A stretch of 64,000 bases of DNA from Narcine bancroftii (lineage: Eukaryota): positions 127,224,001 through 127,288,000 of the forward strand of contig NC_091472.1 of NCBI RefSeq assembly GCF_036971445.1. The letters run 5' to 3'. The position numbers were made by a program, and so were the translations under genes. This document shows positions 21,501 through 62,481 of the stretch, one piece after another (the stretch's first letter is position 1; each line of letters begins with the position of its first letter). The notes below the pieces were generated by a model. That model did not search any database and had not been told where the DNA came from. It saw nothing but the letters and a program-made list of their open reading frames with translations.

Positions 21501-24500
21501 CAAGCTAGAGTCAATCAAGTTGACTATAAAGCAAGAATTTTATCTGATCATTCACCTTTATTAATGACATTTACAATGTTAAAGATCAATCCATTTATAG
21601 ATGGAGATTTAATTCAATGTTATTAAAAAGACCAGATTTTTGTAGAAGGCAAATTTAGATTTTCTTTCAGACTAATCTAATTCGATTAATGATGAATTTA
21701 TTTTATGGGATGCAATGAAAGCATATTTAAGGGGACAAATGATAAATAATTCTTTTAAAATTTAGAAGGACTATATGAAAGAATTGGATCAACTGGAAAA
21801 AAGTGATAACAAGTTTAGGAAAGGACTTACAAAGATGGGTTTCCGAGGAAAAATGTAAGCGGCTTATAAATAAGAAACCTCAGTATTAAAAAAATACAAA
21901 CAGGGAAAGCATTAATGAAAACTAAGCAGAGATACTATGAGTTAGGTGAAAGGGCTCACAAGATTCTTGCTTGGCAATTGAAAACAGAACAAGTTTCAAG
22001 ATCTATTAATGCAATTAAAACAGTCAAATGCGATTACTTAATGAAACTCAAATAATTTTACACTCAGTTATATAAATCTGAGTCAGAGAGAGATGATAAT
22101 AAAATGGAAGATTTTTGTCACAAACAAAGTAACTAATAACTTTGCAAGAGCAAAGGGAGTTGGATGCCCCTTTCGCATCAATGGAGGTGGATGAAACATT
22201 GAGCTCATTACAAAGTAATAAATCTCCAGAAGATGGTTTCTCACCTGAATTTTATAAAGAATTTAAAGACTTAATACCTCCTTTTATGGAGGTATTAAGA
22301 TAGGTAATGGTAACACATACATTCCTGAAAACATTCTCTACTGTGATGATAACAGTAATACCAAAAAAAGACAGAGACCCTTTAAAACCATCGTTTATAG
22401 ACTAATTTCCTTGTTAAATGTAGGCTACAAGATCATTGCAAAAATCTTAGCTAATAGATTGATGATGTTTTTACCAAAAATTGATAAATGTGGATCAGAC
22501 AGTATTTGTGAAAGAGAGAAAATCTGCAGATAATTAACTAGTATAATACATTTAGCACAAAAGAGGGGAGTGGCAGTGGCTTTGGATGCAGAAAAAGCAT
22601 TTGATAGATTAGAATGGGATTTTTGTTTAATTTGTTTGAGAGATTTGGGATGGGACTAGTATTTATAAATTGGGTGAAAGCAGTGGTTCCCAAACTTTTT
22701 CAGGCTGCCACCCCATTGGTCTCCAGGCCACATCCCAAGTACTCCCCCATACAACAGTGCGGGGGGCTTAGTGGCGGCACTGAGCGGGGGATTGGTGGTG
22801 GCGCTTGAGCAGGGGAGGTAGTGATGCCAATACAACATGGAGGCCACCAAGATCAGCTCTCGCAAGAACGCCTTGGTGCCATTTATTTTGTTCACTACTG
22901 CCACCCCGAGTCTGGACAGAAAATTACTGCAGTGGCTTCTTCATTAAGCCTTTCAGCAAACTGAAGGTTCAGAACGCCCCCTTTTCCATCACAGCCCCCT
23001 TTGATCTTTCCACAGCAAACAGTGGGAGGTGACACCCACTTTGGGAATCACTAGATTAAAGCTTTATATAATAATTCTAAGGCTAATGGGCAGGTTCTGA
23101 CATTGTTTCTGTTAACCAGATCTAGTAGGCAAGGATGCCCGTTATCACCTGCTTCATTTATCTTAGCGATTGAACCCCTTGAAGAATTGATTCCATCTGA
23201 TCCAGATATTAAAGGGTTTAAGGTTAATCAAGAATAATATAAAATTAATTTATTTGCTGATGATGTTTTGATTTACTTGATGGAACCAATAGATTCGCTA
23301 CACAAATTATATTTAAGATTGGAGGAGTATGGCAAGGTTTGTAGATGAAATCTCATGTGAATAGAGTAGTAAAGAAAGCTTTTGGTATGCTGTCCTTTAT
23401 AAATCAAAGCATAAAGAGTTGGGAAGTGATGTTGAGACTATTCAAGGCATTGGTGAGGCCAAATTTAGAATACTGTGTACAGTTCTGGTCCCCAAATTAT
23501 AGGAAGGCCATCAATAAGGTAGAGAGAGTGCAGAGAAGATTTACTAAAATGTTCCCTGGATTTCAGAATCTAGATTTCAAAGAAAGATTGAGCAGATTAG
23601 GTCTTTATTCCTTGAAGCATAGAAGGTTGGGGGGGGGGGGGGGAGGATTTGATAGATGTTTTTAAAATTATGAGGGGGATAGATAGTGTAGATGTGAATA
23701 GACTCTTTCCCTTGAGGGTAGGTGAGATTCAAACAAATGGTCCTGAGTTAAGAGTTGGGGCAAAAGTTTAGAAGTTACATGAGAGGAAACTTCTTCACTC
23801 AGACAATGGTGGCTGAGTGGAGGATGATGCCAATAACATTATTAGGTATGATTAATTTTGTCAAAACAAATACATTTCCTAGGGTACAATATAATTGTAA
23901 TTGTTATATGGTTTATATAGTTTTAGGTTATAATGTGAATTGGGATTAAAGTGAAATTATGCCCCTCACTATAGGGGATTACATCAAGTGTCAACAAGTT
24001 ACCCAATTTAAATGGTCGATGAATGGGATAAAATATTTAGGTATACGGGTAAATAATAAGCTAGAGAATGTATTGTGACAGATTATAGATATGTTTTTGG
24101 GAGATAAATTGAGGCAAGTTTTTTTTTTAAGTGTAAGTCACATACAAACACTTCAAAACAGATCTCATTTTAAATTCTGGAGCTCTGCTCAAGCTAGACA
24201 GGATGGCTCCAAGAGCCTTTGCAAAAGGTTAGGAGAGTGACCAAGAGACTTCACTAATGGATTGTTGTTTTGAAAAGCAACAGATGATGAAAGAACTCGG
24301 AGAAGTAGGTTCAGAGCCGAAGGCTGTCTGGGAGTGCTGTTTGCTGTTCTAAGAGAATCATGTGGTTTTTGCAAGCAGAGAGGGAGTCAAACAGGCTTTT
24401 CTCTTAGAGAAAGAGAGAGAGAGATCAGTTTTACAGTCAGCAGCAGCTGGGACTGGAACAGGACAACCTAATAAGCTTGTGGAAAAACCTCATTTTGAAG

Positions 24501-30500: not shown

Positions 30501-33500
30501 TCCCTATCAATGTTAGCGGTAATTCCTTCCAATGTTTTAAGTCTTTCTGTAATTTCCTTATTAATGGCTGATAATTTAACTTGTACAAGTGGTTTAAGTT
30601 ATTGTCTCTCCTGATACCTAGGTATCGGATTGCTTGTGTTTGCCATTTAAATGGAGATTTTAAAATTTTTTTTAAGTTCTGTATAATCCGCATTACTCAT
30701 TGGCATCACTTCGCTTTTATTTGTGTTGACCTTCTACCCCGATATTTCTTATGCAATTCTTTTATTGATTACTCTGGTTCTGTTAGGTATACTATGATGT
30801 CGTCTGCAAATAAGATGATTTTATTCTCTTTCTCCTTTATTTTTAATCCCATTTATTTTATTTTCCTTTTTTATCAGCTCTGCCAATGGTTCTATTGTTA
30901 AGGGGAACAATGAGGGGGAGAATGGACATCCCTGTCTAGTTGATCTGCTTAGCTTGAACTGGTTCGATACATTTCCTTTGCCAACGGTCCATTATATAAT
31001 GCTCTAAACCAGTTAATATATTTTTCTGGCAGATTGAATTTCTGTAACACTTTAAATAAGTAGTTCCATTCTTCCCTGTCAAACGCTTTTTCTGTGTCTA
31101 AAGCAACTGCCATTGTTGGTTTTTTTATTCCCATGTGCTGCGTGAATTAAATTAATAAGTTTACAGACATTATCTGTTCGCCTTTTCTTAATAAATCCAG
31201 TTTGATCTTGTTTTACTATTTTTGGTACACAGCCGCTAATAATTTTGCTATTATCTTATAATCTGAATTAAGTAAGGATATTGGTCTAAATGATGCTGGT
31301 GTTAATGGATCCTTCCTCATCTTGGGTATTACTGTAATTATTACTGTCTTGCATGATTCTGGTAAGTTTTGTGTTTCTTCTACCTGATTCATTACTTCCA
31401 GGAGAGGAGGAATTAATAACTCTTTAAATGTTTTATAAAATTCTATTGGAAAACCATTCCCTCCTGGTGTTTTATTATTCGGCAGCTTTTTTAATATATT
31501 CTGTATTTCCTCTATTTCAAATGGTTTTTATCAGTTTGCCTTGATCCTCTATTTGCAATTTTGGCAGTTCAGTTTTAGCTAAAATCTCTTCAATTTTATA
31601 ATTTTTCCCCTCATTCTCTGTTTGGTATAATTGTTCATAAAATTCCTTAAAGTTTTCATTTATCTCTGTTGGGTTATATGTGATTTGTTTGTCCTTTTTC
31701 CTTGACGCCAGTACAGTTCTTTTAGCTTGCTCTGTTTTAAGTTGCCAGGCCAATATTTTATGTGCTTTTTCTCCCAATTTGAAATATTTTTGCTTTGTTT
31801 TCATTATGTTCTTCTCCACCTTGTACGTTTGTAATAACTCACATTTTATTTTTTTGTCTGCCAATTCTCTTTTTCTTTATATCATCCCTTTTCACTAGTT
31901 CCTTTTCTGTACTTGCTATCTCCCTTTCCAGCTGCTCTATTTCCCGATTGTATTCCTTTTTCATCTTAGTTACATAACTTATTATCTGCCCTCTAATGAA
32001 GGCTTTCATTGCATCCCATAGCATAAATTTATCTTTAACAGATTCTGTGTTTATTTCAAAATATATTTTAATTTGGTGTTCAATAAACTCTCTAATTTCC
32101 TGCCTTTTAAGTAGCATGGGGTTTAACCTCTGTCTATATGTTCTTGGTGGGATGTCCTCCAGTTCTATTGCTGATAGCAGGGGTGAATGATCTGAAAGTA
32201 GTCTAGCTTTATACTCAGTTTTCCTGACTCTCCCTTGAATATGGGCCGACAACAAAAACATATCAATCCTTGAGTATGTTTTATACCTACTCGAGTAATA
32301 TGAATATGAATATTCCTTCTCTCTTGGGTGCTGTCTCCTCCATAAGTTTCATTTCCTGCATTGATTTAACCATAAATTTGGTTACTTTATTCTTTTTGCT
32401 TGTATTTTTTCCGGTTTTATCCAACACTGTATCCAAATTAAGGTTAAAATCCCCTCCTATCAATATATTTCCTTGCTTATCTGCAATCTTCAAAAAAATA
32501 TCTTGCATAAACTTTTGATCCTCATCATTAGGTGCATATATATTGAGAAAATTCCAAAATTCTGAGTATATCTGACATTTCATCATTACATACCTCCACG
32601 CTGGATCTGTTATTTCCTCCTCTATCTTGATTGGTACATTTTTGTTAACTAATATGGCTATACCTCTAGCTTTTGAGTTATATGATGTTGCCGCTATGTA
32701 TCCTACCCAATCTCTCTTCAATTTGTTATGTTCCACTTCGGTTAGATGTGTTTCCTGCACAAATGGTATATCTATTTTTTCCTTTTTCAGTAAATTTAGT
32801 AGCCTCTTCCTTTTAATTTGGTTATGTAGTCCATTAATGTTTATGGTCATATAGTTCAACGTGGCCATCTTATATCTTTATTTTCACTTCTTTTCTGCCT
32901 CCGCCACCTCCATGCCCTTTTTTCCATTACTGTTCTTTAAATTTTCCTTTTTAATCTCAATATATGACAATGCACTTAAGACATGAAATACCCCAACAAT
33001 CCCCACAAGCAATAACCCTTTAACCCCAAATGAACCCCCCCCCCTTGGGTTGCCCCTTGATGGGCAACCACAACTCTCCCTTCCATTCGGTTTGCAAGTG
33101 TCAACCGATTTCGCAGTGACTGTTATCCTCCCCCCCCAGAGAACACTATTTTCGTATACATATAACAAAGCTCTCTCTCTCTTTTTCCCCCTTCTTCCCC
33201 TTCTCTTTTCCATCTTTAAATCTTTATATATACACATTATCTTTACTTTATATTTTTACATATTTTTGTATATTTTCTTGCCGGTCATCTTTCTTGTCAC
33301 TCTTCCTCCTCTCTTCTCCTGTCCTACAAATGTTCAGCAAATTCTTGGGCTTTCTTCGGGTCCAAGAACAGTCTATTCAGTTCCCCAGGAATAAATATTT
33401 TGAGTACTGCTGGGTGTCTTAATATAAAGTTGTAGCCTTTCTTCCATAAGATTGTTTTTGCCACGTTGAATTACTTCCTCTTCTTTAAAAGTTCAAAGCT

Positions 33501-37199: not shown

Positions 37200-38442
37200 C
37201 CTGAGAGAGGAATACAAGTGGAAGTCATTCTACAAATTGACTGCACAGGTGGAAGGAATTCACAACATCACACTAATACAGCCAGTCTATAACCATGTAT
37301 TTACTGCAAGCCCAATTTCTTTGAAAGTAATGAAAATTTCTTTCTCACTCACCCTCAGATAATGAATTTCAAATCCTCATTCAAAATAAAAACATTTCTC
37401 CAGTCCCACCTCCAATCACCACAAATCTCTTAACACAGTAAAAGAAAATAAATCCTTCCCATTCAGCCTGCTTAGGCCTCATAACTTTATGCACATCAAC
37501 TAAATTCCCCCAACCATCTTTTTAGTTCCAAAATAAAACCATCACTAGTCACTCATGACAGGCTCTCTCTCAAAAAAAATGCCTACACCCATTCTGGCGC
37601 TACCACATTCTTCCCATATGAATACTCTGGCCTAGCATTTTAATCACATCTTTCCTGCACTTGCAATGGAAAAGCTCCGGCAATAAACTCCAAGACATTT
37701 CAAAACCGGCAGGGCAAAAAGCTGTTGGGTTACAGTTTAAAAAAAAAGGAACAGGAATGGGACGTTTGGCCTTTCAAGTCAGTTCCACTAGTTACTAAAA
37801 TTATGGCTGATTATCTACCTCATTGCTGTTTGCCAACAATATCTCCATATCCCTTAAACCCTCTGATATCGATAAATCTATTTTGACACAGACTCCACGG
37901 AGAATGCCCCTCCACAGCCCTAGAGCAGTGAACACTAAAATCCCGAGGAAAGAAATTTCTCATTTCTGATGCAAATATTCATCTCCTGGTTTTGAGAATG
38001 TGACCCCTACCTTACATTCAAGATCATTTGGCCAGCAGAAACATCGGCCCTGTATCTATCCTTTTGGGTAGGACCCCCTTTCCCAATTTAATGGAATTCA
38101 GTCCAGAACCAAAGTTGTTGTGGGACCTGATGCTCAGATGATTGTTGGGGCATTACTACCAATAGGTAGCATTTAAACAGAATTTCAAATGGCCTTTTTT
38201 GAACCCAGCAAATGTAATTTCAAGTTTATTTCCCAGAATAGGATACCTTTTCAAATAACAAACCTCAAGGGACTTCGTTGCCCTGTTGCTTCATCTGCGG
38301 GGAAACGGGCAGGATGAAGGTTCCAGCCCAAGAAAGTTGAGCAGCCAACTAGCCCCAGGAATGGGTCGAATCAGTCTTGTGATGCCAACCCCGGGATGGT
38401 CCCCGCCGTTCCAACCTCGATGAGCAACCCAGCGTTGAGGAC

Positions 38443-38814
38443 GGGTCCCCTCCGCCCCCGCCCGGCCCGGGTCCCCTCCGCCCCCGCCCGGCCCGGGTCC
38501 CCTCCGCCCCCGCCCGGCCCGGGTCCCCTCCGCCCCCGCCCGGCCCGGGTCCCCCGCCCCCGCCCGGCCCGGGTCCCCTCCGCCCCCGCCCGGCCCGGGT
38601 CCCCTCCGCCCCCGCCCGGCCCGGGTCCCCTCCGCCCCCGCCCGGCCCGGGTCCCCTCCGCCCCCGCCCGGCCCGGGTCCCCTCCGCCCCCGCCCGGCCC
38701 GGGTCCCCTCCGCCCCCGCCCGGCCCGGGTCCCCTCCGCCCCCGCCCGGCCCGGGTCCCCTCCGCCCCCGCCCGGCCCGGGTCCCCTCCGCCCCCGCCCG
38801 GCCCGGGTCCCCTC
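38443..38814. repeat. GC-rich minisatellite, 26-bp unit, about 14 copies
   Basis: Unit GGGTCCCCTCCGCCCCCGCCCGGCCC; near-perfect copies, one with a 2-nt deletion. Confidence 0.95.
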
Positions 38815-38859
38815 GACTCTCCACCGCGTTCTCCCTGCTGGCAGTCAGCCCCACCGTAC

Positions 38860-39060
38860 CTTGTGACCGGCCCGGCTACCTGCTCTCAGGGGTCCCACCT
38901 GGAGCCGCGGTCCGTCCTCCCGAGCCTCGCCAACACGGTGCAGGCTTCAAAACAAAACTTCGAGACACCGAGTTCTTCCGACTTCGAGCCGGAAACCTGT
39001 TGAAAGATGGTCCTTGAAGCTGCAGCAGAGAGTCCCAGTCCCAGACTCGCTCAAACAGGA
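38860..39060 (-). other. Putative non-coding first exon of the RABGEF1-like gene in a CpG-rich region
   Basis: CpG-rich. Donor AAG|gtacgg at 38860, with an alternative CAG|gtagcc at 38880. Coding exon 1 has an acceptor 1 nt before its ATG, so an upstream exon is needed. The 5' boundary is uncertain. Confidence 0.6.
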
Positions 39061-45491: not shown

Positions 45492-48400
45492 ATTTTTTAA
45501 AAAATGCTTTAAAAAAAATGTTCATTAAAAATTTAACAATTATAACATTTCAATAAAAATATACATAAACTATATGTATATGTATATAAAAAATATATAA
45601 AATTTTATATAAAACAAAAAAAATCACACATACAAAAAACCCTAACTCTAGCCACTTCTGTTCCCCCCCCCCCCCCCCCCACTTTATTAAATACCTTTTC
45701 GTACACCTTCAGAGCTCACAGTTTAAATTAACCTCACGATTCAGGGAGAGATCACTTTTTAAATTTAGCAACATTATTAGAATTGGGTACCAACATGTTC
45801 AAATATGGTCGCCATATTTTATCATACTTGTTCCTTAAATTGTATGTTATCCATTGGAGCGCTTACATCCCTAACGTCGAAGTACTCGAGATGGCAGAGG
45901 TCGACAGCATCGAGTCCACGCTGCTGAAGATCCAGCTGCGCTGGATGGGTCACGTCTCCAGAATGGAGGACCATCGCCTTCCCAAGATCGTGTTATATGG
46001 CGAGCTCTCCACTGGCCACCGTGACAGAGGTGCACCAAAGAAAAGGTACAAGGACTGCCTAAAGAAATCTCTTGGTGCCTGCCACATTGACCACCGCCAG
46101 TGGGCTGATAACGCCTCAAACCGTGCATTTTGGCGCCTCACAGTTTGGTGGGCAGCAACCTCCTTTGAAGAAGACCGCAGAGCCCACCTCACTGACAAAA
46201 GGCAAAGGAGGAAAAACCCAACACCCAACCCCAACCAACCAATTTTCCCCTGCAACCGCTGCAATCGTGTCTGCCTGTCCCGCATCGGACTTGTCAGCCA
46301 CAAACGAGCCTGCAGCTGACGTGGACTTTTTACCCCCTCCATAAATCTTCGTCCGCGAAGCCAAGCCAAAGAAGAAGAAGAAGATGTTATTTTTTCCATT
46401 GGTATACAACTATCCATCTCTGCTCTCCAACTCGCCAAGATAACTGGAGAGTCCGATTTCCACGTGATTGTAATGCACTCTTTGGCCACTGCTAGTGTAA
46501 TTTTAACAAATGAAATTTGAAACTCTGTAATTACAGATTATTACTTATGTCTATAAAATTGCCTAACAAATAAAGTTCTGGATCACCTGGGAAGGTCACC
46601 CTTGTAATTATTGTTAATAATTCTGAAATTTCTTGCCAAAAAGATCTAACCTTCACACATGACCAAGTTGAATGAAAGAATGTTCCTTCCTCTATTTCAC
46701 AACTAAAACACAGTTCTGGCATTTCTGGCTTAGATCTGTGCAACTTCTGTGGAGTGAGATACAGCTGATGTAAAAAAATTATATTGAACCAACTCATATT
46801 TTGCATTAATAGTTAAAGTTACACTAACCACACACCATTCAGACCAGGATTGTTCTGGTATTGCAACACCTAAGTCGGACTCCCACCTTTCTCTTGATCT
46901 CTGCAGATCAGGTTTAGCACTTTCTAACTGAATAGCAAATTACATTCTGGTAATAAATTTGGGCATGTTACCCATCCAAAGCATTCATCCCATTTCACTA
47001 ACTCCCAAAGGAGTTAATGCCTGTCCCCATCGTTCCCTTAAGAAAGCTCTCAGTTGAAGAAAACATAAAAAAGTTCCATTAGGTACACCATAGGTCTGTC
47101 TCATTTTTTCAAATGACATTAAAACACCATCTTTATAACTGTCCGCTATACACTGTATACCCTTTTGTAACCATATGTTTGAAATTCTGTTACCTATATT
47201 CGTAGGATATGGAGCTCTTAGCGAAATGCACACTTTTTTTTCTGACACATTAATTAATTTCTTGCCATATTTTTACCATATGTACCAAGCTAAGATCACT
47301 TGTCTTCCTTTTTATTGATTTAATGCTCCATTTATAAATAAAGTCTTTAGCTTTTGGTTCATTCATGGAATGTAGCCCCATATAAACTCAGCTTAGTGAA
47401 TTCCTTTCAAAAGAAATGCTAAAACTCTTGCTTGTGCAGCCAGATAATATTTTTTAAAGTCTGAAATTCTCAGCCCTCCTAATTTATAATCCCAGGTTAG
47501 TTTTTTCAACGCAATTCTTGGCACTTTGTTATTCCATAAGAACTGTCTTACTTGATTGTTTAACAATTTGAAAAAATTCTTCGGTAAAGCTCTAGGTCAT
47601 AATCAGAACAAGTATTGAAGTCTCGGCATCACTTTCATCTCTACCCAACTCTCTCTTCCTACTAGTGTTATCGGTAAATCCTTCCATTTTTGTAAGTCTT
47701 GTTCTATTTTACTAATCAGAGGAACATAATTAAGCTGAAACAAATTTTGTAAATTGTTCTTTGTTACTACTTGCAAATATTTAACCCATCTGTTTTCCAT
47801 TTAAACCTGCTGCCTCTTTTATATCTTTCATGGTCTTGGTTTGTTAAGGGCATTATTTCACTTTTGTCTATATTAACCTTATAACCAGAAACTCTACCAT
47901 ATTTTCTGAGAGTCTCCTGTAACTTTTCTAAGGACCCTTCTGGATCTGACAAATATAATAATACATCATCCCAAAATAAACTAATTTTATGCTCATCTTG
48001 TCCGATCACCAAGTCCTTATTTTCAGGATCTCTTCTAATAACTTCAGCGAGATGTTCAATTGCTATAATAAACAATGCTGGAGACAGAGGACATCATTGC
48101 CTACTCGACCTACTCAAAGGGAACACTGTCGACATTTGACTATTCATAATTATCTTTGCCTACGGACTGTGATATACTGCCTTAATCTGATTAATAAATC
48201 CCCTTCCTACACCAAATTTCTCCAATGTTTCAAACAAAAACAGCAATTCTAATCAGTCGAATGTCTTTTCTGCATCCAGAGAAATTTATACTTGGATTAT
48301 ACCCCGATTTTGCCATGTGTATTATTTTAAACAGTCTAGCTAGATTATTCGGTAAATGTCTACCCTTTACAAATCCCACCTGGTCCGGATGTATTAACTT

Positions 48401-48660
48401 TGGTAGATATTTCCCCAATCTATTGACTAACTTTTTGCTACAATTTTATAGTCAGCATTAAGAGAAATTGGCCTATATGACGGCATTTTTGATGGATCTC
48501 TATTCTTTTTGGGTAATACCATAATTATCGCCATTGAAAAAGATTCCGGAAGTGTCTGTGTCTCCACTGCTTGATCCAATTCATCAATCAGTAATGGCAT
48601 TAACATATCTTTAAATTCTTTATAGAACTCAGGTGGAAACCCATACTCTCCCGGAGACTT
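45492..48660 (-). mobile_element. 5'-truncated L1/Tx1 LINE (RT to 3' end)
   Basis: SPGEYGFPPEFYK, SYRPISL, LIHPDQVGFVKGR, ISLFWDDVLL, CIPMEKITYNL; A-rich tail. Confidence 0.9.
45851..46383 (+). mobile_element. RTE (BovB-like) LINE 3' fragment
   Basis: QLRWMGHVSRMEDHRLPKIVLYGEL...CNRCNRVCLSRIGLVSH; (GAA)n tail; TSD ATGTTAT. Confidence 0.92.
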
Positions 48661-51600
48661 GTAAACTTGCCAGTGAGGGATGGGAAGGCCCATGGATATT
48701 AAGGCTAGTAGTACTGCCTTCCAGACCATGCAGTTCTCCTGCTCCACCTGGCCATTCCTTTTGGAGTTATAGCTGGTGGTCCGGCTAGAGGCAATGCCCT
48801 TGGACAAGAAATATTGCTGCAGCTCGTCGTTCATGAAGGACAAACCCCTATCGATGTAGCAGGGGTATCTAAAAATAGTGAACAGGTTGTTCATAGCCTT
48901 TATGATGGTAGCTACAGACACGTCCAGGCATGGGATGGCAAAGGGGAACCGTGAGTACTCATTGATGATGTTGATGAAGTATACGTTGCAGTTCATGGAG
49001 GGCAGGGGTCCTTTGAAGTCCATACTCAGACATTCAAAGGTGTGACTGATCGGGATGGTAGAAGCACGGTTTGCACTCCGCACAGACCCAGCAATTTTTG
49101 ATCAGCGTCCTGATGTCCTCAGTGGAGTTGGGAGATTATGGGCCTTGGTGAAGTGAAAAAAACGGGTGATCCCAAGGTGGCAGAGTCTGTCGTGCAGTGC
49201 CTGCAACTGGTCCATCTGTGCACTGGCGCAAATGCCCCGAGACAGGGTGTCCAAGAGCACATTGAGCTTTCCGAGCCAGTACAGAATGTCATAATTGTAG
49301 GTGGAGAGCTCAATTCTCCACCTCAGGATTTTGTTGTTTTTGATTTTACCCCACTGCTGATTGTTGAACATGAAGGTGACTGCCCATTGGTCAGTCAGCA
49401 GGGTAAAATGGTTACCAGTGAGGTAATGTCTCCACTTCAAAAATAGCCTGGGTCTCTTTCTTGATGGAAGAGTGCCGGAACTCAGGGCCCTGGAGGGTGC
49501 ACAATAAAACTCTACAGGCCTGATGGCCTGGTTAAGTGTGGCCATCAAGGCAAAGTTTGATGCATCACTCTCCACCTGGAACGGGATGGATTCATCCATT
49601 TTGTGCATCGTGGCCTTTGCAATGTCGGCTTTGATATAGTAGAATGCCTCGCGGGCTTCTGCCGACGGGGAAAATGATGGCCTTGATGAGGGGTCGGGCC
49701 TTCTCTGTGTAGCTGGGGACCCATTGAGCGTAATAAGAGAAAAACCCGAGGCACCTTTTCAGGGCCTTGAGGTATTTGGGAAGTAGAAGTTCTAACAGGG
49801 AGTGAATGCGGTCAGGTTCGGGGCTGATGACTCCATTCTCCACAACACAGCCTAGTATAGCCAGGTTATGTGTGCTGAAAACACACTTCCCTGTGTTGTA
49901 CGTCAGATTGAGGCGTTTTGCGGCGTGGATGAATTTTTGGATGTTCCATTCATGGTTCTGCTGATCATGGTCGCAGATAGTAACATTGTCGAAGTATGGG
50001 AAAGTGGCCCGCAGTCTGTGTTCGCCATCATCCGATTCATCTCCCTTTAAAAGATAGACATCCCATTCATAACCTCAAAAAGGTCTCTCAGGAAATGGTA
50101 CAGTCGGCCATCTGCCTCGAAGGCAGTGTTCTGGTGGTCTTTGAGTGGATGGGGAGCTGGTGATAAACGGACTTAAGATCTTTGGTCAAGAACACCCTGT
50201 ATTGTGTGATTCAGTTCACCATGTCAGCTATGCTGGGCAGGGGGTAGGCATCCAGCTGGGTGAACTTATTGATGGTCTGGGAGTAATCGGTGACCATCTG
50301 GTATTTCTTCCCACTCTTCATCACCATTACCTGGGCTCTCCATGGGCTCATACTCTGCTCTATCACCCCTCAGCAAGGAGGCATCTTACCTCTGACTTAA
50401 AAATGCCCTGTCCCTGGCACTATATCTTCGACTTTTAGGTGCTATGGGGTTACAGTTGGAGGTGAGATTGGTGAACGGGGTGGGGGAGGGGGATCCGGAG
50501 CGTGGAGAGGCACATGTCGGCTATAGAGATTGGGTTTGAGGCTGCTGGTTGGCCCTGTGGGTTTGGGGCTGCTGGTTGGCTATGTGGTGAGAGAGGGGTG
50601 GGCAGTCCATAAAATGTTTGTTACAGACCATGAGAGGAGGGTGGAGTCCATTGTACTCCATGGTGACGCTCTTTAAGTTGCCCTGAAAGTCTAATCCCAG
50701 TAGCATGGGTGCACAGAACTGTGGCAGTACTAGGAACATAAAGTTACGGTAGACTGTGCCTTGGACAGTCAGTTTCACAGTACAACTGTCACGAACTTTA
50801 GCAGAGTGAGATTGGGATGCTAGAGAGACACTATGTTTAGCAGGCTTCACCCCAAGGGAGTAGTGCTGTACAGTGTTTGGGTGAATGAAGCTCTCAGTGC
50901 TCCCACTGTCAAATAGGCAAGTGGTGGGGCAGCTGTTTACCTGGTCATCCATCATGGCCCTGGAGAGTTGATGCGGTCTGTGTTGATTCAGGATTATCAA
51001 TGCCAGCGTCAACTCATCTTCCGAGGAGTTCCATTGGCTGCTGGCAGTCCAGTAAGATGGCAATCGAGATGGCGGCCCCCATGGTGCAAACGCAGCCCCA
51101 TCATCGTTCACTGGAAGAGAAGAGGGAGGAGATGGAAATGACATCATCGCAGTTGGTGATCTCCGTGGTGAATGTGCGCGGGCGCCCAAGGTCCTAAGAA
51201 GTGATGGCGGAAGTGACTGCATCAAAGATGGCAGCCCCACTCGCATGTGATGCTGCTGGCCTTGGGGGCTTGCTTAGACTTACAGACCTTCGCAAAGTGT
51301 CCCTTCTTCTGCAGTTGGAGCAGATGGCCTCCTTGGCAGGGCAGCATTTCCTCAGATGCTTGCCCTGCCCACAGAAGTAGCACATCGGGTGGTTACTAAC
51401 GGCAGTGGAGGTCATCTCAGGTGCCTGCATGTCTGGCTTCAGCCAAGCTTTTGTATTTTAAATGAGATGTGATGTGTAAGTATCTGTTTGTGAAGTGACC
51501 TACCCTAAATCCACCACAATCTATCTCTTTTAAAGACATATTTATATAAAATATAATATAAAAAATAACCCATAAAAACAGACTTCATTCACTGTACCTT

Positions 51601-52088
51601 GTACTGGTCTTTCAGGGTGTTCATGGCATCTCTGTAGGTCTGGCAGTCCTGGATCATCTGGTAGATTCAATGCCCGATGTACGGAAATAGCAGGTGGATT
51701 TTGTCTTCATCACCCTGGATCGCAGCTGCAGAGGCCATGAGGAACTTTTCAAAGCAGCAGCGACAGACTACGAGTTTGTCAGCTGCTTTGAGTTCTCTCC
51801 GGTTGATTTTGAGGCGGTCCAACTTCAAGTATTTGTCCATGTTCCGAGGGAAACATAATCTCGCTAATAAAATTGATGCACGATCAATTATGCAAAGACT
51901 GAAGTTATTGGAAACTGAAGGCTTTTATTAGCAAGAGATGGACCGCATCCCTTGTGTTGCTGGCTCACACCGACCCAGACTCAAACTGGGACCAGAGTTG
52001 TGGCATGACAGCCTTTATGGGGAGAAAGGGGACCAGTCACGAGCCAGCCAGTGAGAGCACGGTCATGTACAATAGTGGTTTCACCACA
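48661..52088 (-). mobile_element. Gypsy LTR retrotransposon, 3'-truncated: LTR 51874-52088, gag (CCHC), protease, RT, RNase H, integrase
   Basis: CYFCGQGKH..C, LFDSGSTESF, ESDASNFA, LLTDQ, RWRIELSTY, MDFKGPLP, NGQVEQEN; TG..CA LTR. Confidence 0.93.
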
Positions 52089-52383: not shown

Positions 52384-54928
52384 TGGGGGGGGGGGCCGTG
52401 CCATGTGATGATGTAGGGTTGGACTGGTAATCCCTGCTCTTGAAAAAGTTGAGAAAAAGTGATAAAAAAAGACTATAAAAGTTACAGACACTATAAGGAA
52501 GAAGACATTAACAATGCTAGCAAAGAAAGATAAAGGTCTTACTGCAATAAAGAACAAGAAAAGGAAGAGAGGCCTACCTTGAGAAAGGATCCTGGAGCTG
52601 TCCGCAAGGTAATATCCAATGGAGAGAGGCCAGAAGCTGGGGAAACCTTGGACACTGTTGCACAAGGTCTCCCCCGACAATGGCCGCCGACATCAGGTGA
52701 AGAGATTACTCCTCGCGCATGCGCAGAGCACGAAAAAAACTGATATTTTAAAAAAGATACAAGTCACCCACAGCTCCAGCGATGATGAAGAGGACTTGGA
52801 AAAGCAAAGGTAAGATCAAGAATGACCTACAATCAAGAAAAAAGCAGAGAAAGGTACAGAAGCTTCTTCATCTTCTGGAGAAATGAAGCAGTTTTTGGGT
52901 TCTTTTCGACTATCTATGGAAGTATTAACTGATGAAGTGCGGAAGAATGGTGACAAGATAGAATGATTAATGCCACAAGTTGACACAAAATTTGAAAGAG
53001 TGGATGGGAAAATTAAAGGGAATGAACTTGAAATTCAAAATATTAAAGGTCAAATGAAGAAAGTACAAGCAGAGGCAGCTGCCAAGAACGATCAGTTAAT
53101 GCAAAAAGTAGATATTTTGGAAAATTTTAGTTGATGGAATAATATCAAGAAGGGGATGAAGATCAAGATTTGAAAAAGTTTTTGCAACAATGCATACTGG
53201 AATCTTTGGGTAAGGCTGAATTTCAAGGTGATTTGGAAGTTGAGCAAGCCCAAAGGGCATTGAAACCTAAACCTCAGCCTGACCAAAGGTCCCATTAAGT
53301 ACTTGTCAGATTTCTTCGATATGAAGTAAGAGAGAAGATATTGGAGCTGGCAGCGAAACAAGCTAAAGAAAATCACCATTGATTTATAATGGAAATAAGA
53401 TTTTCTTTTATCTAGACATAAGTTTTGATTTGTTTAAAAAAGAGAAAAGAGTTTAATCCGGTTAAAGATGTGTTATGGAAAAAAGGCTATGCCTTTGTTT
53501 TGAGATACCCAGGTGTATTGAAAGTATTTGTCCTGTGAGGGAGGAATAGATTTTTTACAGAGCCTAATGAAGCAAAGGTATATGCCGATTCATTGCCTGC
53601 TAAAGACCAATAGGCAGTGTTGATACTTGAGTTAATTACATAACTGAAAGAATTTTACTGTAACTGAAATTACATTGTGTTTTGAGAGAGTTTAAAGGGG
53701 GAGGAAGGTTTAACCAAAGAGGTAGGAAATTTTTTTACATGCAATTTGGCAATGTGAAAAAGTAGAAAATTTTTGGGAAGATATAAGTATTTTATTGGGA
53801 CAAGTTATGAAGATGCAAATTCTGAAAGATCCAAAAATATTTTTTGTTAGGGGATATTTATGATTTGAAGTTAGATATTTATCAGAAGTTTGTAAGTGTA
53901 GCAATAGCAATAGCAAAGAAATGTATAGCCGTAACATGAAAACTAGATAATAACGTGGGTTTGAATAGATGGCAAGTAGAATTACAAAATTGTATCTTCT
54001 TTGGCTTGGCTTCGCGGACGAAGATTTATGGAGGGGTAATGTCCACGTCAGCTGCAGGCTCATTTGTGGCTGACAAGTCCGATGCGGGACAGGCAGACGC
54101 GGTTGCAGCGGTTGCAAGGGAAAATTAGTGGGTTGGGGTTGGGTGTTGGGTTTTTCCTCCTTTGTCTTTTGTCAGTGAGGTGGGCCTTGTGGTCTTCTTC
54201 AAAGGAGGTTGCTGCCCGCCGAACTGTGAGGCGCCAAGATACACGGTTTGAGGCGATATCAGCCCACTGGCGGTGGTCAATGTGGCAGGCACCAAGAGAT
54301 TTCTTTAGGCAGTCCTTGTACCTCTTCTTTGGTGCACCTCTGTCATGGTGGCCAGGGGAGAGCTCGCCATATAACACGATCTTGGGAAGGCGATGGTCCT
54401 CCATTCTGGAGACGTGACCTACCCAGCGCGGTTGGATCTTCAGCAGCGTGGATTCGATGCTGTCGGCCTCTGCCATCTCGAGTACTTTGATGTTAGGGAT
54501 GAAGTTGCTCCAATGAATGTTGAGGATGGAGTGGAGACAACGCTGGTGGAAGCGTTCTAGGAGCCGTAGTATTGTATACCATTAGAGAAAATAACATATA
54601 ATTTATGGAATCAACCAGAAAAATATAATAAGATTTGGAAACCTTGTATGGATTTTATTGGTAAGAGTTCATCTGTGGGGTCCGCTGCTCCCACCCTAAC
54701 TCACCTTAATTAATTTAAGGCAAAGGTATTTGAAATTCAATTAATCAATGAAAGATATATGATCAATTCAAGCAGGCTTTTTCTTTTTCTTTTTTTTCTT
54801 ACTTTTTTGGGGAGGGAGAAAATATAAAATTATGTATTCTTCTTACAACTTTTTAAAATTCTGTATGATTACAGATAAATACTGTATTTGTTATTGATGC
54901 AAATGAAAAATAACATTTTCAGAAAAAA
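52384..54928 (+). mobile_element. Internally deleted L1 (ORF1 plus ORF2 C-terminus only)
   Basis: 12-bp TSD AAGCCTTTGACA (52372-52383 / 54929-54940); ORF1 remnants at about 52500-53610; then only the ORF2 end ([11 protein letters not shown]) and A tail. Confidence 0.85.
53996..54570 (-). mobile_element. RTE (BovB-like) LINE 3' fragment
   Basis: Near-identical to 45851-46383; TSD ATTGTAT (53989-53995 / 54571-54577). Confidence 0.92.
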
Positions 54929-55066: not shown

Positions 55067-55277
55067 CAGTGGAGACTGCTAGCAGAAAAGGCCCAAACAT
55101 TTTCTTTTCAATCTTCTTCATTGCAGTGCTGCGCCTTTAGAGTGGAACTAATCTTCAGAATGAATGGGAAAGCAGTGGAGACTGCTAGCAGAAAAGGCCC
55201 AAACATTTTCTTTTCAATCTTCTTCATTGCAGTGCTGCGCCTTTAGAGTGGAACTAATCTTCAGAATGAATGGGAAA
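55067..55277. repeat. Two-copy tandem duplication of about 106 bp
   Basis: CAGTGGAGACTGCTAGCAGAAAAGG...GAATGAATGGGAAA starting at 55067 and 55173. Confidence 0.92.
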
Positions 55278-56891
55278 TCATGCAATCTTTGATACCTACA
55301 CTCTAAACCAAGATCATTCTGAGCTGCAGGATGTAGGCAATGCTTGATTTAATTGGGTGCAGAGCTTTAGATCCAAGACATGGATCAGTTGAAGCCCATA
55401 GCAGTCTCCACTGTGCCATATAGCCCCTCAAAAAATGTGAAACACTTTCCATATTTCAGGAACCACCACTTGTCAAAGACAAAAGATTTCTTCAATGTAT
55501 CAGCACAGCCTTTATTTGATTGAGAAAAATTATGTTTGAAGATCAAGAGAATTAGATTCAGTAATCAAATTTGGAGAGGTGGATCAAACTTGCCGTAGAT
55601 TCACCTGAAACCTAGAGAACATGCATAAAGGACTGCTCACTTTGTGAAATGTCAAAAAAAAAGCTGAGCTGCTGTATCAAATCTGCTCATAATTCCAGGG
55701 TCATCTCTCTTTCTACTGTAAGCAGTCTTGTTAAACCTTATTCCTCAGCTCCTCCTGTTACTTCCAGTAGTACAAGGAGCCCATGGACTTCTTTGTCATT
55801 CTGATAACAATCATCAGTCAGCTACCGTTGCCACCTCGTTGCCTCACTCACCCTCACTTCTCAGCTCATCCATCCAAACTTAAAATGTTCCTTCCAGCTC
55901 TGATCCCAGACTCGCATCTTTTTCTACTTTCATCTCCCTTTCATCCTTCCCAACAGGGTTGTCCTCTAGCCCATCTTTCTGTTCCCTCAACTCTGTTCCC
56001 AAATAATTATTCCCGTCTTTCCTTCCTACTCACCAGGTGAACTGATTTTGTTAATGGTTCCATCTCTATCAATCCACTCCTCTAAAGGACTCAACATTTC
56101 ACTCTTTCCTTCTGCCATCTATTCTTCCATCTCCAGTTTTTCTTTTCTCTCTTATATTCTGGGCTACGGAAGAAGCCTCCTTTCAGTTTCATGCTCTTCT
56201 TACCAAGTGTTTCTAGTTTTATTCCTCCCTGTTCCAGTTCCAAAACCTTTTCTTCCCACAGGCTCAAGAATGGTATGCTCCAAAAAAGCAACACAGGATT
56301 TTGATGCGTGGTTAATTCTAAGTGAATGCAAGATGTGATTTTCATTTTTCTGCTTACTAAACTAATCTATTTTTTTAAAGCACAGCAGGACACCTCTAAA
56401 ATGAATGCACTTCCTGAACTTTGTGGGAACTTTAAATTGTGTCTAAGGCAATTTCATAGGTGCAGGAATTGTCATCAGCTGAGCTCTATGTTTTGGAGCT
56501 TGAGCAATATCTGATATCACTATGGTCCATCTGTGGATAGCATGTGATCAGCCTGCAGGGAGCACAGGGAGCAGGCAACTCTAAACTAATCCAAAAGAGT
56601 CTGGACCAGCCTGCCTCAATCTACCTTCATTCAAGAAGTCATCCAAAGATGCTACCAGCATCTTATCTCACCAATGATCTATATTGGTACCTATCCAAGC
56701 AACAACTCAGTTTAAAAATTTTCACCCTTGTTTGCAAAGGCCATTCCTGATTTCTGTAATCTCCCCCAGCCATTCAGCCTTCACCTTAAATAACAACTCT
56801 TTTTGTGGTTTGTTGTCAAATTAGAAGGTGGTGATGGTGCTATAAATGGAATATAACTGCAATAAACAAGTGTACAAATGAATATAACACA

Positions 56892-57631
56892 NNNNNNNNN
56901 NNNNNNNNNNNNNNNNNNNNNNNNNNNNNNNNNNNNNNNNNNNNNNNNNNNNNNNNNNNNNNNNNNNNNNNNNNNNNNNNNNNNNNNNNNNNNNNNNNNN
57001 NNNNNNNNNNNNNNNNNNNNCTGTGTGTGTGTCTGCCTGTATCTATGTGTGTGTCTGTCTGTTTNNNNNNNNNNNNNNNNNNNNNNNNNNNNNNNNNNNN
57101 NNNNNNNNNNNNNNNNNNNNNNNNNNNNNNNNNNNNNNNNNNNNNNNNNNNNNNNNNNNNNNNNNNNNNNNNNNNNNNNNNNNNNNNNNNNNNNNNNNNN
57201 CTGTCTGTGTCTAGGTGTCTGTGTGTGTGTGTCTGTCTGTTTCTATGTGTGTGTGTCTGTTTGTGTGTGTTTGTCTGTGTCTAGGTGTCTGCATGTGTGT
57301 GTGTCTGTCTGTTTCTATGTGTGTCTGTGTGTGTGTGTCTGTGTCTATGTGTGTGTGTCTGTTTGTTTCTATGTGTCTATGCGTGTGTGTGTGTCTGTGT
57401 CCATGTATATGTGTGNNNNNNNNNNNNNNNNNNNNNNNNNNNNNNNNNNNNNNNNNNNNNNNNNNNNNNNNNNNNNNNNNNNNNNNNNNNNNNNNNNNNN
57501 NNNNNNNNNNNNNNNNNNNNNNNNNNNNNNNNNNNNNNNNNNNNNNNNNNNNNNNNNNNNNNNNGTGTGTCTGTCTGTTTCTATGTGTGTGTGTGTGTGT
57601 CTTTGTCTATGTGTGTGTGTGTCTGTGTCTA

Positions 57632-57662
<31 letters not shown>

Positions 57663-57770
57663 CTGTTTGTTTCTATGTGTCTGTGTCTATTTGTCTGTCT
57701 GTGTGTCTGTTTATATGTGTGTGTGTGTGTTTGTCTGTGTCTATGTGTCTGTGTGTGTGTGTGTGTGTGC
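56892..57770. repeat. Compound (TG)/(TGTC) microsatellite with N gaps
   Basis: TG-rich low-complexity tract with three N runs. Confidence 0.95.
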
Positions 57771-57840
57771 CTAAGAAGTGTTTCCAACTCTAACAGCACT
57801 TTTATAAATGGGTTATTGTTGAACTGAGAAATTGAAACTG

Positions 57841-58939: not shown

Positions 58940-60494
58940 GCTGTCCATCTGTACGCTGGTGCACGTCCCCCTGGAGAGCGCGTCATTGAGCTTACCAAGC
59001 CGGTACAGGATGTCATAGTTAAAGGTGGAGAGTTCGATTCTCCATCTGGCGATTTTGTCGTTTTTTATCTTATCTCGCAGGGTGTTGCTGAACATGAAGG
59101 AGACCGCGCGTTGATCAGTCAACAGTGTAAAGCGCCTCCCAGCAAGATAATGTCTCCAACAACGCACCGCTTCAACTATGGCCTGGGCCTCCTTCTCGAC
59201 CGAGGAGTGTCTACTCTCTGGACCCTGGAGGGTTCTGGAGGAGAAGGCTACAGGCCGACCGTCCTGGTTCAAGGTGGCTGCCAGGGCAAAGTCAGATGCA
59301 TCGCTCTCGACTTGAAATGGGACAGACTCATTGATCGCGTGCAGCGTTGCAGCGGCGATGTCGGATTTGATTTGATTGAAAGCCGCTCTGGCTTCGGTCG
59401 AGAGGGGAAAGGAGGTGGTCTTGATAAGAGGACGCGCCTTGTCGGCGTAGTGTGGAACCCATTGGGTGTAATTAAGAGAAAAAGCCCTGGCAGCGTTTGA
59501 GCGCTTTCTGGAAATGGTGGGGGGGGGGGGGGAAGTAAGTCCATTAGGGGACGCATGCGGTCAGGATCTGGCATCACTACCCCGTTCTCCACCACGCAAC
59601 CTAGAATAGCAAGTCGTGTGGTCCGGAAGACACACTTGTCAAAATTGTAGGTCAGGCTCAGCTGACCGGCAGTTTGAAGAAATTTGTCTAGGTTGGCATC
59701 ATGGTCCTACGTGTCATGGCCGCAGATGGTGACATTGTCCAGATATGGGAAGGTAGCGGTTAGCCCATTCTGGTCCACCATCTGGTCCATTTCCCGCTGG
59801 AAGACCGCGACACCATTCGTGACCCCGAATGGTACCCTGAGAAATTGATACAGCCGCCCATTCACTTCGAAGGCCGTGAATGGTCGGTCCTCACAGCGGA
59901 TCGGGAGCTGGTGGTAGGCCGAACGTAGGTCAATGGTGGAGAATATGCGGTATTGGGCGATCTGGTTCACCACATCCATGATGCTCTATCCGCTCCCTCC
60001 TATATACCGCAACAAATGCCACCCCCCACGAAAGGATGTTCTCTTAGACTCTCAAGGACACCATAGACAGCAATGCTGTTAGATGCTGGTTATCCTCCTC
60101 CACCTCAATGAGCCTTAGGAAGTTTTCAAAGTTCAACAGCCAGAACTTAAAGGCTTTGAAGGCTGTAGCTGACTGTGGGTCGATGTCAAGTTTTTCTGGC
60201 CGAGTCAGACGCTCCGTCCCTTTTTAAAAAAAATTATTTTTGCTAATAAAATTGTAGAACTCCTCGAAAGAACCAAAGACTTGTTGATCCAAACCAAGGC
60301 TTTTATTAGCAAAAGACAGGAGCTCTTCACAGGTGGCTGACCAGTCCGGAATGATCCGACCTGGCTAAGGACACAACCCTTTAAGGCCCAGACAGTAGGC
60401 GTGGCTAAGCTCTCAGCCAATCGCTGTAAGCACAGTCATTACATGCTCTAGATACTGTAACTATATACATTGGTGATAGGTCTGTACTATCACA
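58940..60494 (-). mobile_element. Second Gypsy family, deleted: LTR 60253-60494, gag start, RT-RNase H fragment 58940-59980
   Basis: IDLRSAYHQL...PFGVTNG...YLDNVTI, VAFSSRTL..EKEAQAI..LLTDQ; gag start RPEKLDIDPQSATAFK; TG..CA LTR. Confidence 0.9.
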
Positions 60495-62273: not shown

Positions 62274-62481
62274 TGTAGCGTAGTTAAAAGCTCACACTCG
62301 ACTGGAGGGAGAACTAACGCTTTTATTAGCTTACAACACAGGTAGGGTTCACGAAAAGGCTTCAGAGGGTTTCAGGGTTTAGGCAGGAAACCAGGGTTAT
62401 ATATGGGCCTCTGGGGAAGGAGCCGAGAGGCGGGACCAATCGTCAGTACGAGACACTTCTAGTGTCTCCCAGTTCACTACA
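62274..62481 (-). mobile_element. Short solo LTR related to the Gypsy LTRs
   Basis: TGTAG...CTACA termini; minus-strand TATATAA and GCTAATAAAAGC; imperfect AAGG flanks. Confidence 0.75.

Follow-up and report, generated by a model that had tools for sequence, protein, structure and literature searches.

Priming of reverse transcription by an element's own RNA has been shown by experiment in Tf1, where pairing involves the first 11 bases and RNase H cleaves between positions 11 and 12 (PMC7175516), and has been regarded as characteristic of the Tf1/sushi group and of a few lineages in plants. By definition, the members of the Tf1/sushi group are chromoviruses whose leader forms three duplexes (PMC10085805). 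Under the criterion of Neumann et al. 2019, self-priming is predicted where at least 10 bp of the LTR can pair with a stretch that begins 0-5 bp past the 5' LTR (PMC6317226). In HIV-1, both RNA ends carry a poly(A) hairpin, the effect of which is overcome by enhancers at the 3' end (PMC2645353). A scheme for the order of hairpin and tRNA priming has been put forward (PMC3601003), and further literature for comparison includes PMC6934838.

The element described here lies on the minus strand of a 64,000-nt stretch of Narcine bancroftii DNA, referred to as the window. Its 5' LTR (Gypsy family A; 51874..52088, minus strand) runs from TGTGG to CATCA and measures 215 bp here and about 240 bp in other copies. 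The end of the LTR is fixed independently by the 3' LTRs of other family A copies (L307, L308, L310), which end in CATCA and are followed by flanking DNA; a 3' LTR of the window copy is absent within the window. A single spacer A at 51873 separates the LTR from a 14-mer, TTTTATTAGCGAGA (51859..51872, minus strand), that occupies the position of a primer-binding site one base past the CA of the LTR, and the gag start lies about 18 nt beyond this 14-mer. The original prediction, that CATCA plus A is followed by no TGG-type primer-binding site, was confirmed at these positions. Read on the minus strand, TTTTATTAGCGAGA (51872-51859) forms 13 Watson-Crick pairs and one G-U pair with TCTTGCTAATAAAA (51936-51923), an LTR arm (51923..51936, minus strand) that includes the poly(A) hexamer and is likely to represent the 3' part of a self-primer. 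In 100 shuffles of the 200 nt upstream, the mean was 8.3 pairs and 13 pairs were never reached, which bears out the proposed pairing with an AATAAA-holding arm. The G-U pair that was part of the same proposal holds for the window copy but not for most of the family: 80 of 84 exact family A junctions genome-wide have the A that gives 14/14 pairs, and four have the G-U state. Among 30 family A loci, 14 of 14 positions pair in nine, 13 in 14, 12 in six and 10 in one. With its partner beyond the LTR, at the primer site, the arm can form a stem at the 5' end only, as had been proposed.

Upstream of the arm, a TATA-like CATAAA (52014..52019, minus strand) is a promoter element predicted from the sequence, and the initiator-like CCCAGTTT (51983..51990, minus strand), assigned by its spacing and by analogy with the stop wall of families B and D described below, would place the start of family A RNA at A 51987, with the arm 51 nt downstream. 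The decayed gag-PR-RT-RH-IN region (48665..51841, minus strand, ends approximate) contains stops and frameshifts, and its integrase part is cut by a LINE fragment. The named proteins closest to the window element are from rays and sharks, with 61-67% identity between its RT stretch and elasmobranch proteins. The LINE fragment in the integrase is L1-like (window about 46380-48660, minus strand), with related fragments at 22235-23269 and 31243-31467. Two inverted, 93% identical copies of a LINE 3' end, RTE-like by eye, flank family A (45849-46375 and 53995-54518), and the same tail interrupts U3 in two other loci (L374 and L434). Other repeats in the window are an inverted repeat at 6154-6320 (71-nt arms, 86% complementary, 25 nt spacing), a 26-bp minisatellite (38371-38888), a 106-bp tandem duplication (55067-55278) and a CA-rich array with N stretches (56860-57790).

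Two other families are represented in the window. The family B 5' LTR (60253..60494, minus strand, 242 bp) has the arm TTTTGCTAATAAAA at 60314-60301 and is followed by the 14-mer TTTTATTAGCAAAA (60238..60251, minus strand), which is compensated relative to family A. Deleted and broken internal fragments comprising the gag start and RT-RH lie at 58940..60220 (minus strand, ends approximate); by eye, the gag start matches a Narcine protein. Contigs of four sets of uncertain kind span the family B LTR, and the start, end and strand of the RNA are not resolvable from them. Family C is present as a solo LTR (62274..62481, minus strand) with the arm GTAAGCTAATAAAA at 62334-62321. The partner expected for it, TTTTATTAGCTTAC, was written down as a prediction beforehand and was found after the 5' LTRs of other copies.

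Copies are numerous in the genome (2208 first-look candidates, of which 40 were scored). A sample blind to the pairing was obtained by using the gag stretch of another species as query and taking the best 30 of 150 matches. An LTR end could be found in 26 of the 30, and 22 of these 26 form at least 11 of 14 pairs. The remaining four pair at only 8-9 positions (decayed or rearranged). Pairing with the locus's own arm averaged 12.1, as against 10.4 with permuted arms and a maximum of 11.2 over 2000 permutations. In well-paired loci, the arm is found 46-54 nt ahead of the LTR end, in most cases with GC after it. A metagenome scan returned 80 loci; 23 of the closer ones were examined and nine had a whole 5' junction. 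All nine pair at 12-14 of 14 positions, some with stems of up to 17-19 bp, while the most divergent member of the clade (L097) had no readable LTR junction. In an alignment of 18 representative families, 96.8% of 252 cells are paired, nine of the 14 pairs are changed on both sides, and the covariation score is 0.535 versus 0.146 when shuffled and at most 0.09 when slid; the rows of this alignment were hand-picked, one per variant, and the arms chosen by best pairing, so that the shuffle control favours structure and the gag-selected sample is the fairer test. No relative of the element was found among viral contigs. By these sequence comparisons, arm and site covary across families, as the original prediction required, and the stem is a clade-wide feature of the families of this genome and of their metagenome relatives. 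None of the 37 post-LTR sites scored starts with TGG. In the pairing scores, the LTR end of L095 had been placed one base too far, so that its count is lowered to 12. The core shared by the A, B and C sites resembles the anticodon loop of tRNA-Ile(AAU), a point taken up below.

Evidence of another kind comes from integrated DNA. Two palindromic loci (L078, L046) consist of an LTR, the site and then the LTR reversed from the arm. With an exact pattern for such fold-back junctions, family B gave 145 against 1715 LTR/site junctions, or 8.5%, where the denominator includes close sister families and some of the fold-back junctions were copied later from a single event. Family D, with B one of two young sister families, gave 192, and family A one against 84 junctions; reversed-pattern controls gave none. 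Family C has two true fold-backs, L046 and L305; the second is one of four matches of a family C search, the other three of which were rejected, L304 and L306 being normal junctions minus one base and L303 extending 6 nt only. L305 ends at a CA within the reversed arm and has a 5-bp target duplication, as if integrase had taken a look-alike end.

The loci analysed further were 97 of family B (96 covering 100 of the 145 places, plus L078) and 88 of the 192 of family D. Whole U3-to-U3 palindromes account for 22 of the 97, and 20 of these 22 have a 5-bp target duplication with no more than one mismatch; family D has 11 among its 88 loci, six of them with the duplication. Because the target duplication surrounds two U3 ends, we infer that the molecule was made before integration. 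The fold-backs thus pre-date integration, and the stem therefore acts in reverse transcription. Such joins arise when a site-ended strand primes on the arm, or an arm-ended strand on the site. Plus-strand strong-stop DNA of retroviruses and Ty3 ends in a copy of the primer site; the 14-mer therefore behaves as a primer site, whichever strand primed. Among the 63 junctions with C or T next, 30 loci were checked for jumps right at the end of the site; 27 are normal, one is a fold-back and two have such a jump. Simple inversion between two arms fits one family D locus (L396), in which U5 is inverted exactly between arm and primer site and a normal gag start follows; it fails for the duplication-flanked palindromes and for jumps onto internal sequence.

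Some loci show more complex arrangements. An extra, partly inverted U5 follows the arm in 16 of the 97 family B LTR loci (L182, L208-L210, L222, L233, L240, L243, L249, L252, L253, L256, L265, L267, L270, L272), most of them with target duplications, and the picture in family D is similar. Since within each locus a variant base is common to both U5 copies, these LTRs arose repeatedly or spread as a sub-lineage. Tandem arrays with units of about 278 bp and about 333 bp that include the fold-back junction are present in families D (L377-L379, L418, L444) and B (L260, L261). Fold-back insertions give rise to palindromes of 400-450 bp and to tandem arrays in the genome, and the arrays may mark a route from aberrant cDNA to satellite DNA.

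The points at which backward copies end bear on the RNA template. In the family B LTR, a TATA-like motif lies at position 110, an initiator-like A at 143 and the arm at 181-194, a spacing that was noted before endpoints were measured. In 21 of the 97 family B loci, the backward copy stops at 132-175 and then jumps, mostly onto the same element and with short overlaps. About 10 of 20 independent stops (the compound junction of L234 being excluded) fall within 137-150 (P ~2e-4 after correction). In L231, the backward LTR copy stops at 143, the initiator-like A itself, and then runs into a copied poly(A) stretch, as a jump onto the tail of another RNA would produce. A narrow start window predicted for family D, written down beforehand, held for three stops only (-3, +2, +4), with five further stops at +11 to +18. 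When own-element switches of B and D are taken together, 21 of 22 stop at, or 3' of, a border 11 nt before the initiator-like A and one lies beyond it. With the border set from B, this wall was replicated in D, where one of eight stops lies beyond it versus 5.9 expected (P = 6e-4); the family D stops in U3 (-82 to -93) adjoin LINEs or other elements and were counted as later disruptions rather than template switches. Of the 22 switches, 17 have their stop 22-51 nt upstream of the arm, with hardly any beyond that distance. Going upstream, the stop rates per base are 0.25, 0.57 and 0.008, which is a drop and not a smooth decay. The wall points to an RNA that begins about 40 nt before the arm, near the predicted start, which suggests a primer roughly 50 nt long, compared with 11 nt in Tf1. 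An imperfect hairpin whose tip is near that position in family B could shape the stops. The wall could also come from plus-strand DNA jumping onto the 5' end of any packaged RNA, in which case it would not identify the primer.

At the other end, strands of family B that copy U5 backwards and then jump stop at the last A of the arm in 5 of 22 independent cases (P ~0.0015, corrected), as if the template began there. The corresponding single-cut prediction for family D, also written beforehand, failed, with 0 of 35 stops on the predicted bases; 8 of the 35 are 1-3 nt deeper in the A-run, in a window picked afterwards, and 24 lie within -7 to +9. Minus-side stops near the start site in three loci (L411, L375, L225) imply that some templates were uncut. 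The combined stops of B and D are compatible with either a cut placed loosely within the A-run or a separate primer that was trimmed.

Altogether, the sequences show the stem, its position one base after the CA, its covariation and, in hundreds of integrated DNAs, a join at the stem. The 14 bases after the LTR are likely to be the binding site for a primer derived from the element's own RNA rather than from a tRNA. We are confident that the element primes itself in some form, and lean, with much less assurance, towards a long primer taken from the RNA 5' end. By this scheme, transcription would start 40-50 nt upstream of the arm, and a loop of about 50 nt would separate the arm from the post-LTR site with which it pairs. 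An RNA 3' end would be formed within the A-run of the arm, most likely through a cut by the element's RNase H as in Tf1, to yield a capped primer of about 50 nt of which only the last 13-14 bases are paired. Minus-strand DNA would then begin at the 3' end of the arm. Plus-strand strong-stop DNA would terminate in a copied site that is complementary to the LTR of the same molecule; it could be extended along the unpaired part of the primer to the cap, and would often fold back or jump, with integrase inserting the products. Masking of the 5' poly(A) signal may be a side benefit where the arm holds the hexamer.

The alternative that best survives leaves the genomic RNA uncut: a separate arm-ended primer would be trimmed from its 3' end by a nuclease until the duplex with the site stops the trimming, its source being either a short LTR-only transcript ended at the LTR poly(A) signal or the 3' R end of genomic RNA. 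Such a primer would explain why the arm usually holds a hexamer (AATAAA or ATTAAA in 21 of the 26 gag-selected loci and 6 of the 9 metagenome loci), why family D lacks a single cut base and why minus strands reach the start site in the three loci named above; its 3'-end form would also explain why most fold-backs reach the start of U3, a reach for which DNA fold-back accounts as well. The peak at the last A of the arm in family B argues instead for templates that begin there, and three metagenome arms have no hexamer. We judge a separate primer to be unlikely, while giving it some weight.

The exact geometry of Tf1, with transcription starting at the arm and the first 13-14 bases serving as primer, is the only self-priming arrangement shown by experiment (PMC7175516), and the two plus strands out of 30 that jump at the very end of the site would fit it. 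However, the TATA-like motifs of families A, B and C are 70-85 nt upstream of the arm and not 30, and the 17 of 22 switches that stop 22-51 nt upstream of it are not predicted by this geometry, which seems to us quite improbable here.

We regard as very improbable the proposal that the stem mainly hides the 5' poly(A) signal while priming is by a host RNA yet to be found. Structural repression has a precedent in HIV-1 (PMC2645353), most arms hold the hexamer, and when real copies are folded from the predicted start, the probability that AAUAAA is unpaired at the 5' end is 0.01 in each of A, B and C. With the LTR folded alone, the value is 0.92 in A and 0.66 in B but 0.12 in C, so that in family C the signal is hidden by the LTR alone too. 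In addition, L091 has a retained stem whose loop contains AATAAA, and the arms of L092 and L093 contain no hexamer. A partner that always begins one base after the CA is not needed for masking, and more than 10 different site sequences cannot be followed by a host primer. The suggestion that the stem conceals the signal is therefore retained, as a plausible prediction from folding, for families A and B and set aside for C and for three of the nine metagenome relatives. Masking is plausible for many families but secondary, and cannot be the reason why the stem is kept or why its start is invariably one base after the CA.

A last reading, in which the 5' half of tRNA-Ile(AAU) primes as in the half-tRNA-Ile case described for Bianca (PMC6317226) and the LTR arm merely resembles its anticodon loop, is hardly credible and is already largely refuted by the pairing scores: in a comparison confined to the Ile(AAU) type, host Ile(AAT) genes, fetched and confirmed, give a run of 8-9 pairs with the A, B and C sites, but over 37 sites the tRNA forms 6-10 Watson-Crick pairs and the own arm 11-14 in 33, the match is not conserved, its core being altered in sister families where the LTR compensates (GCTAATAA, GTTAATAA, GTGAATTA, GCAAATAA, GCTAGTTA), and the fold-back junctions are left unexplained. 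Three Ile(AAT) genes and one Ser(CGA) gene form a tRNA cluster near 190.43 Mb of contig G000:C11 (L172-L174). A longer match to the tRNA-Ile anticodon arm in the flank before a family C LTR (L041) lies at the end of another repeat and not at a primer site, and is probably due to chance. Covariation, the poorer fit of tRNA-Ile(AAU) and the integrated fold-backs joined at the stem lend good support to the tRNA-independent priming that had been proposed for this locus.

The fold-backs provide genomic evidence of the stem acting in reverse transcription, as well as testable coordinates for the RNA start and the primer end. A wider reading, possible though we would not call it probable, is that self-priming arose independently in a large Gypsy clade of animals that has no relation to chromoviruses; that the primer of this clade is a long capped piece of its leader ending in its own poly(A) signal, possibly made by host 3'-end machinery on LTR-only transcripts; and that roughly one in ten of its insertions is a folded-back intermediate of reverse transcription, two-ended LTR palindromes among them. 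If this were true, the fold-backs would be a readable fossil record of where the primer begins and ends. A self-priming clade without chromodomain and with another geometry would mean a further origin of the mechanism or a much older one, and bears on whether hairpin priming preceded tRNA priming (scheme in PMC3601003). Control by tRNA fragments would not reach such elements, and annotation that relies on a tRNA site would overlook them. Neither self-priming in a non-chromovirus animal Gypsy clade nor integrated fold-backs at a self-primer were found in the literature covered; most subscription journals, Repbase and GyDB lay outside this coverage and may contain a mention of either.

The clade polyproteins show, by Pfam, the Ty3/Gypsy order protease-RT-RNase H-integrase, and their best solved relative is Ty3 Gag-Pol. 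Paired TG...CA LTRs were present in 13 of 20 fetched stretches; of the other seven, six have none and the match in L320 is a flanking repeat. Most stretches have a polypurine tract before the 3' LTR, and 5-bp duplications are present. Identity with Saci2 elements was ruled out, as these have 4-bp duplications and tRNA sites (PMC12471100), and the RT motifs of the clade were not found in five text supplements of a mollusc survey (PMC6238403). A chromodomain and a Tf2-type SH3 domain following the integrase core are found in 0 of 9 clade polyproteins versus 6 of 6 control elements, and RT-RH is 29-37% identical to that of chromodomain-bearing elements. In an RT tree rooted at the midpoint, with no outgroup and no named Tf1/sushi element, the 19 clade rows stand apart from 14 others, six of them with a shown chromodomain, with a support of 100/100.

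Compared with the systems outlined at the beginning, the 14 bp starting 1 bp after the LTR place the element within the self-priming class of Neumann et al. 2019. Tcn1 and the TAR elements (Houba, Osr-1), predicted self-primers of plants, pass the same operational test (PMC6317226); they are chromoviruses or copia elements, whereas the clade described here is a non-chromovirus Gypsy group of elasmobranchs and metagenome contigs. As in Bianca, the anticodon loop of tRNA-Ile(AAU) is matched over 8-9 nt in three clade families, but most sister families lose this match and keep the pairing with the LTR. What is shared with HIV-1 is the predicted pairing of AAUAAA at the 5' end; the HIV-1 hairpin, however, is wholly within the repeat and present at both RNA ends, while the partner in the clade is outside the LTR and restricts the stem to the 5' end. 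With Tf1/Tf2 of S. pombe, Tj1 and the Tf1/sushi group, the clade shares the Ty3/Gypsy domain order, the absence of a tRNA site and a primer site complementary to its own LTR (PMC7175516, PMC10085805, PMC4600332). The parallel drawn with Tf1/sushi in the original prediction thus stands for the primer site. It does not extend to the chromodomain or the Tf2-type SH3, both absent from the clade, which forms a separate RT-RH branch in the tree described above, nor, probably, to the position of the arm, which would lie 40-50 nt into the transcript and in most cases covers the poly(A) hexamer. The stem is 13-19 bp long instead of 11, and there is no clear three-duplex "pretzel": the leaders of three real copies are predicted to fold with a central stem (pair probability 0.75-0.96) and U5 hairpins, and with no common flanking pair of duplexes. 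In conclusion, the likeness of this clade, with its lack of a chromodomain, to Tf1/sushi is one of mechanism and not of membership.
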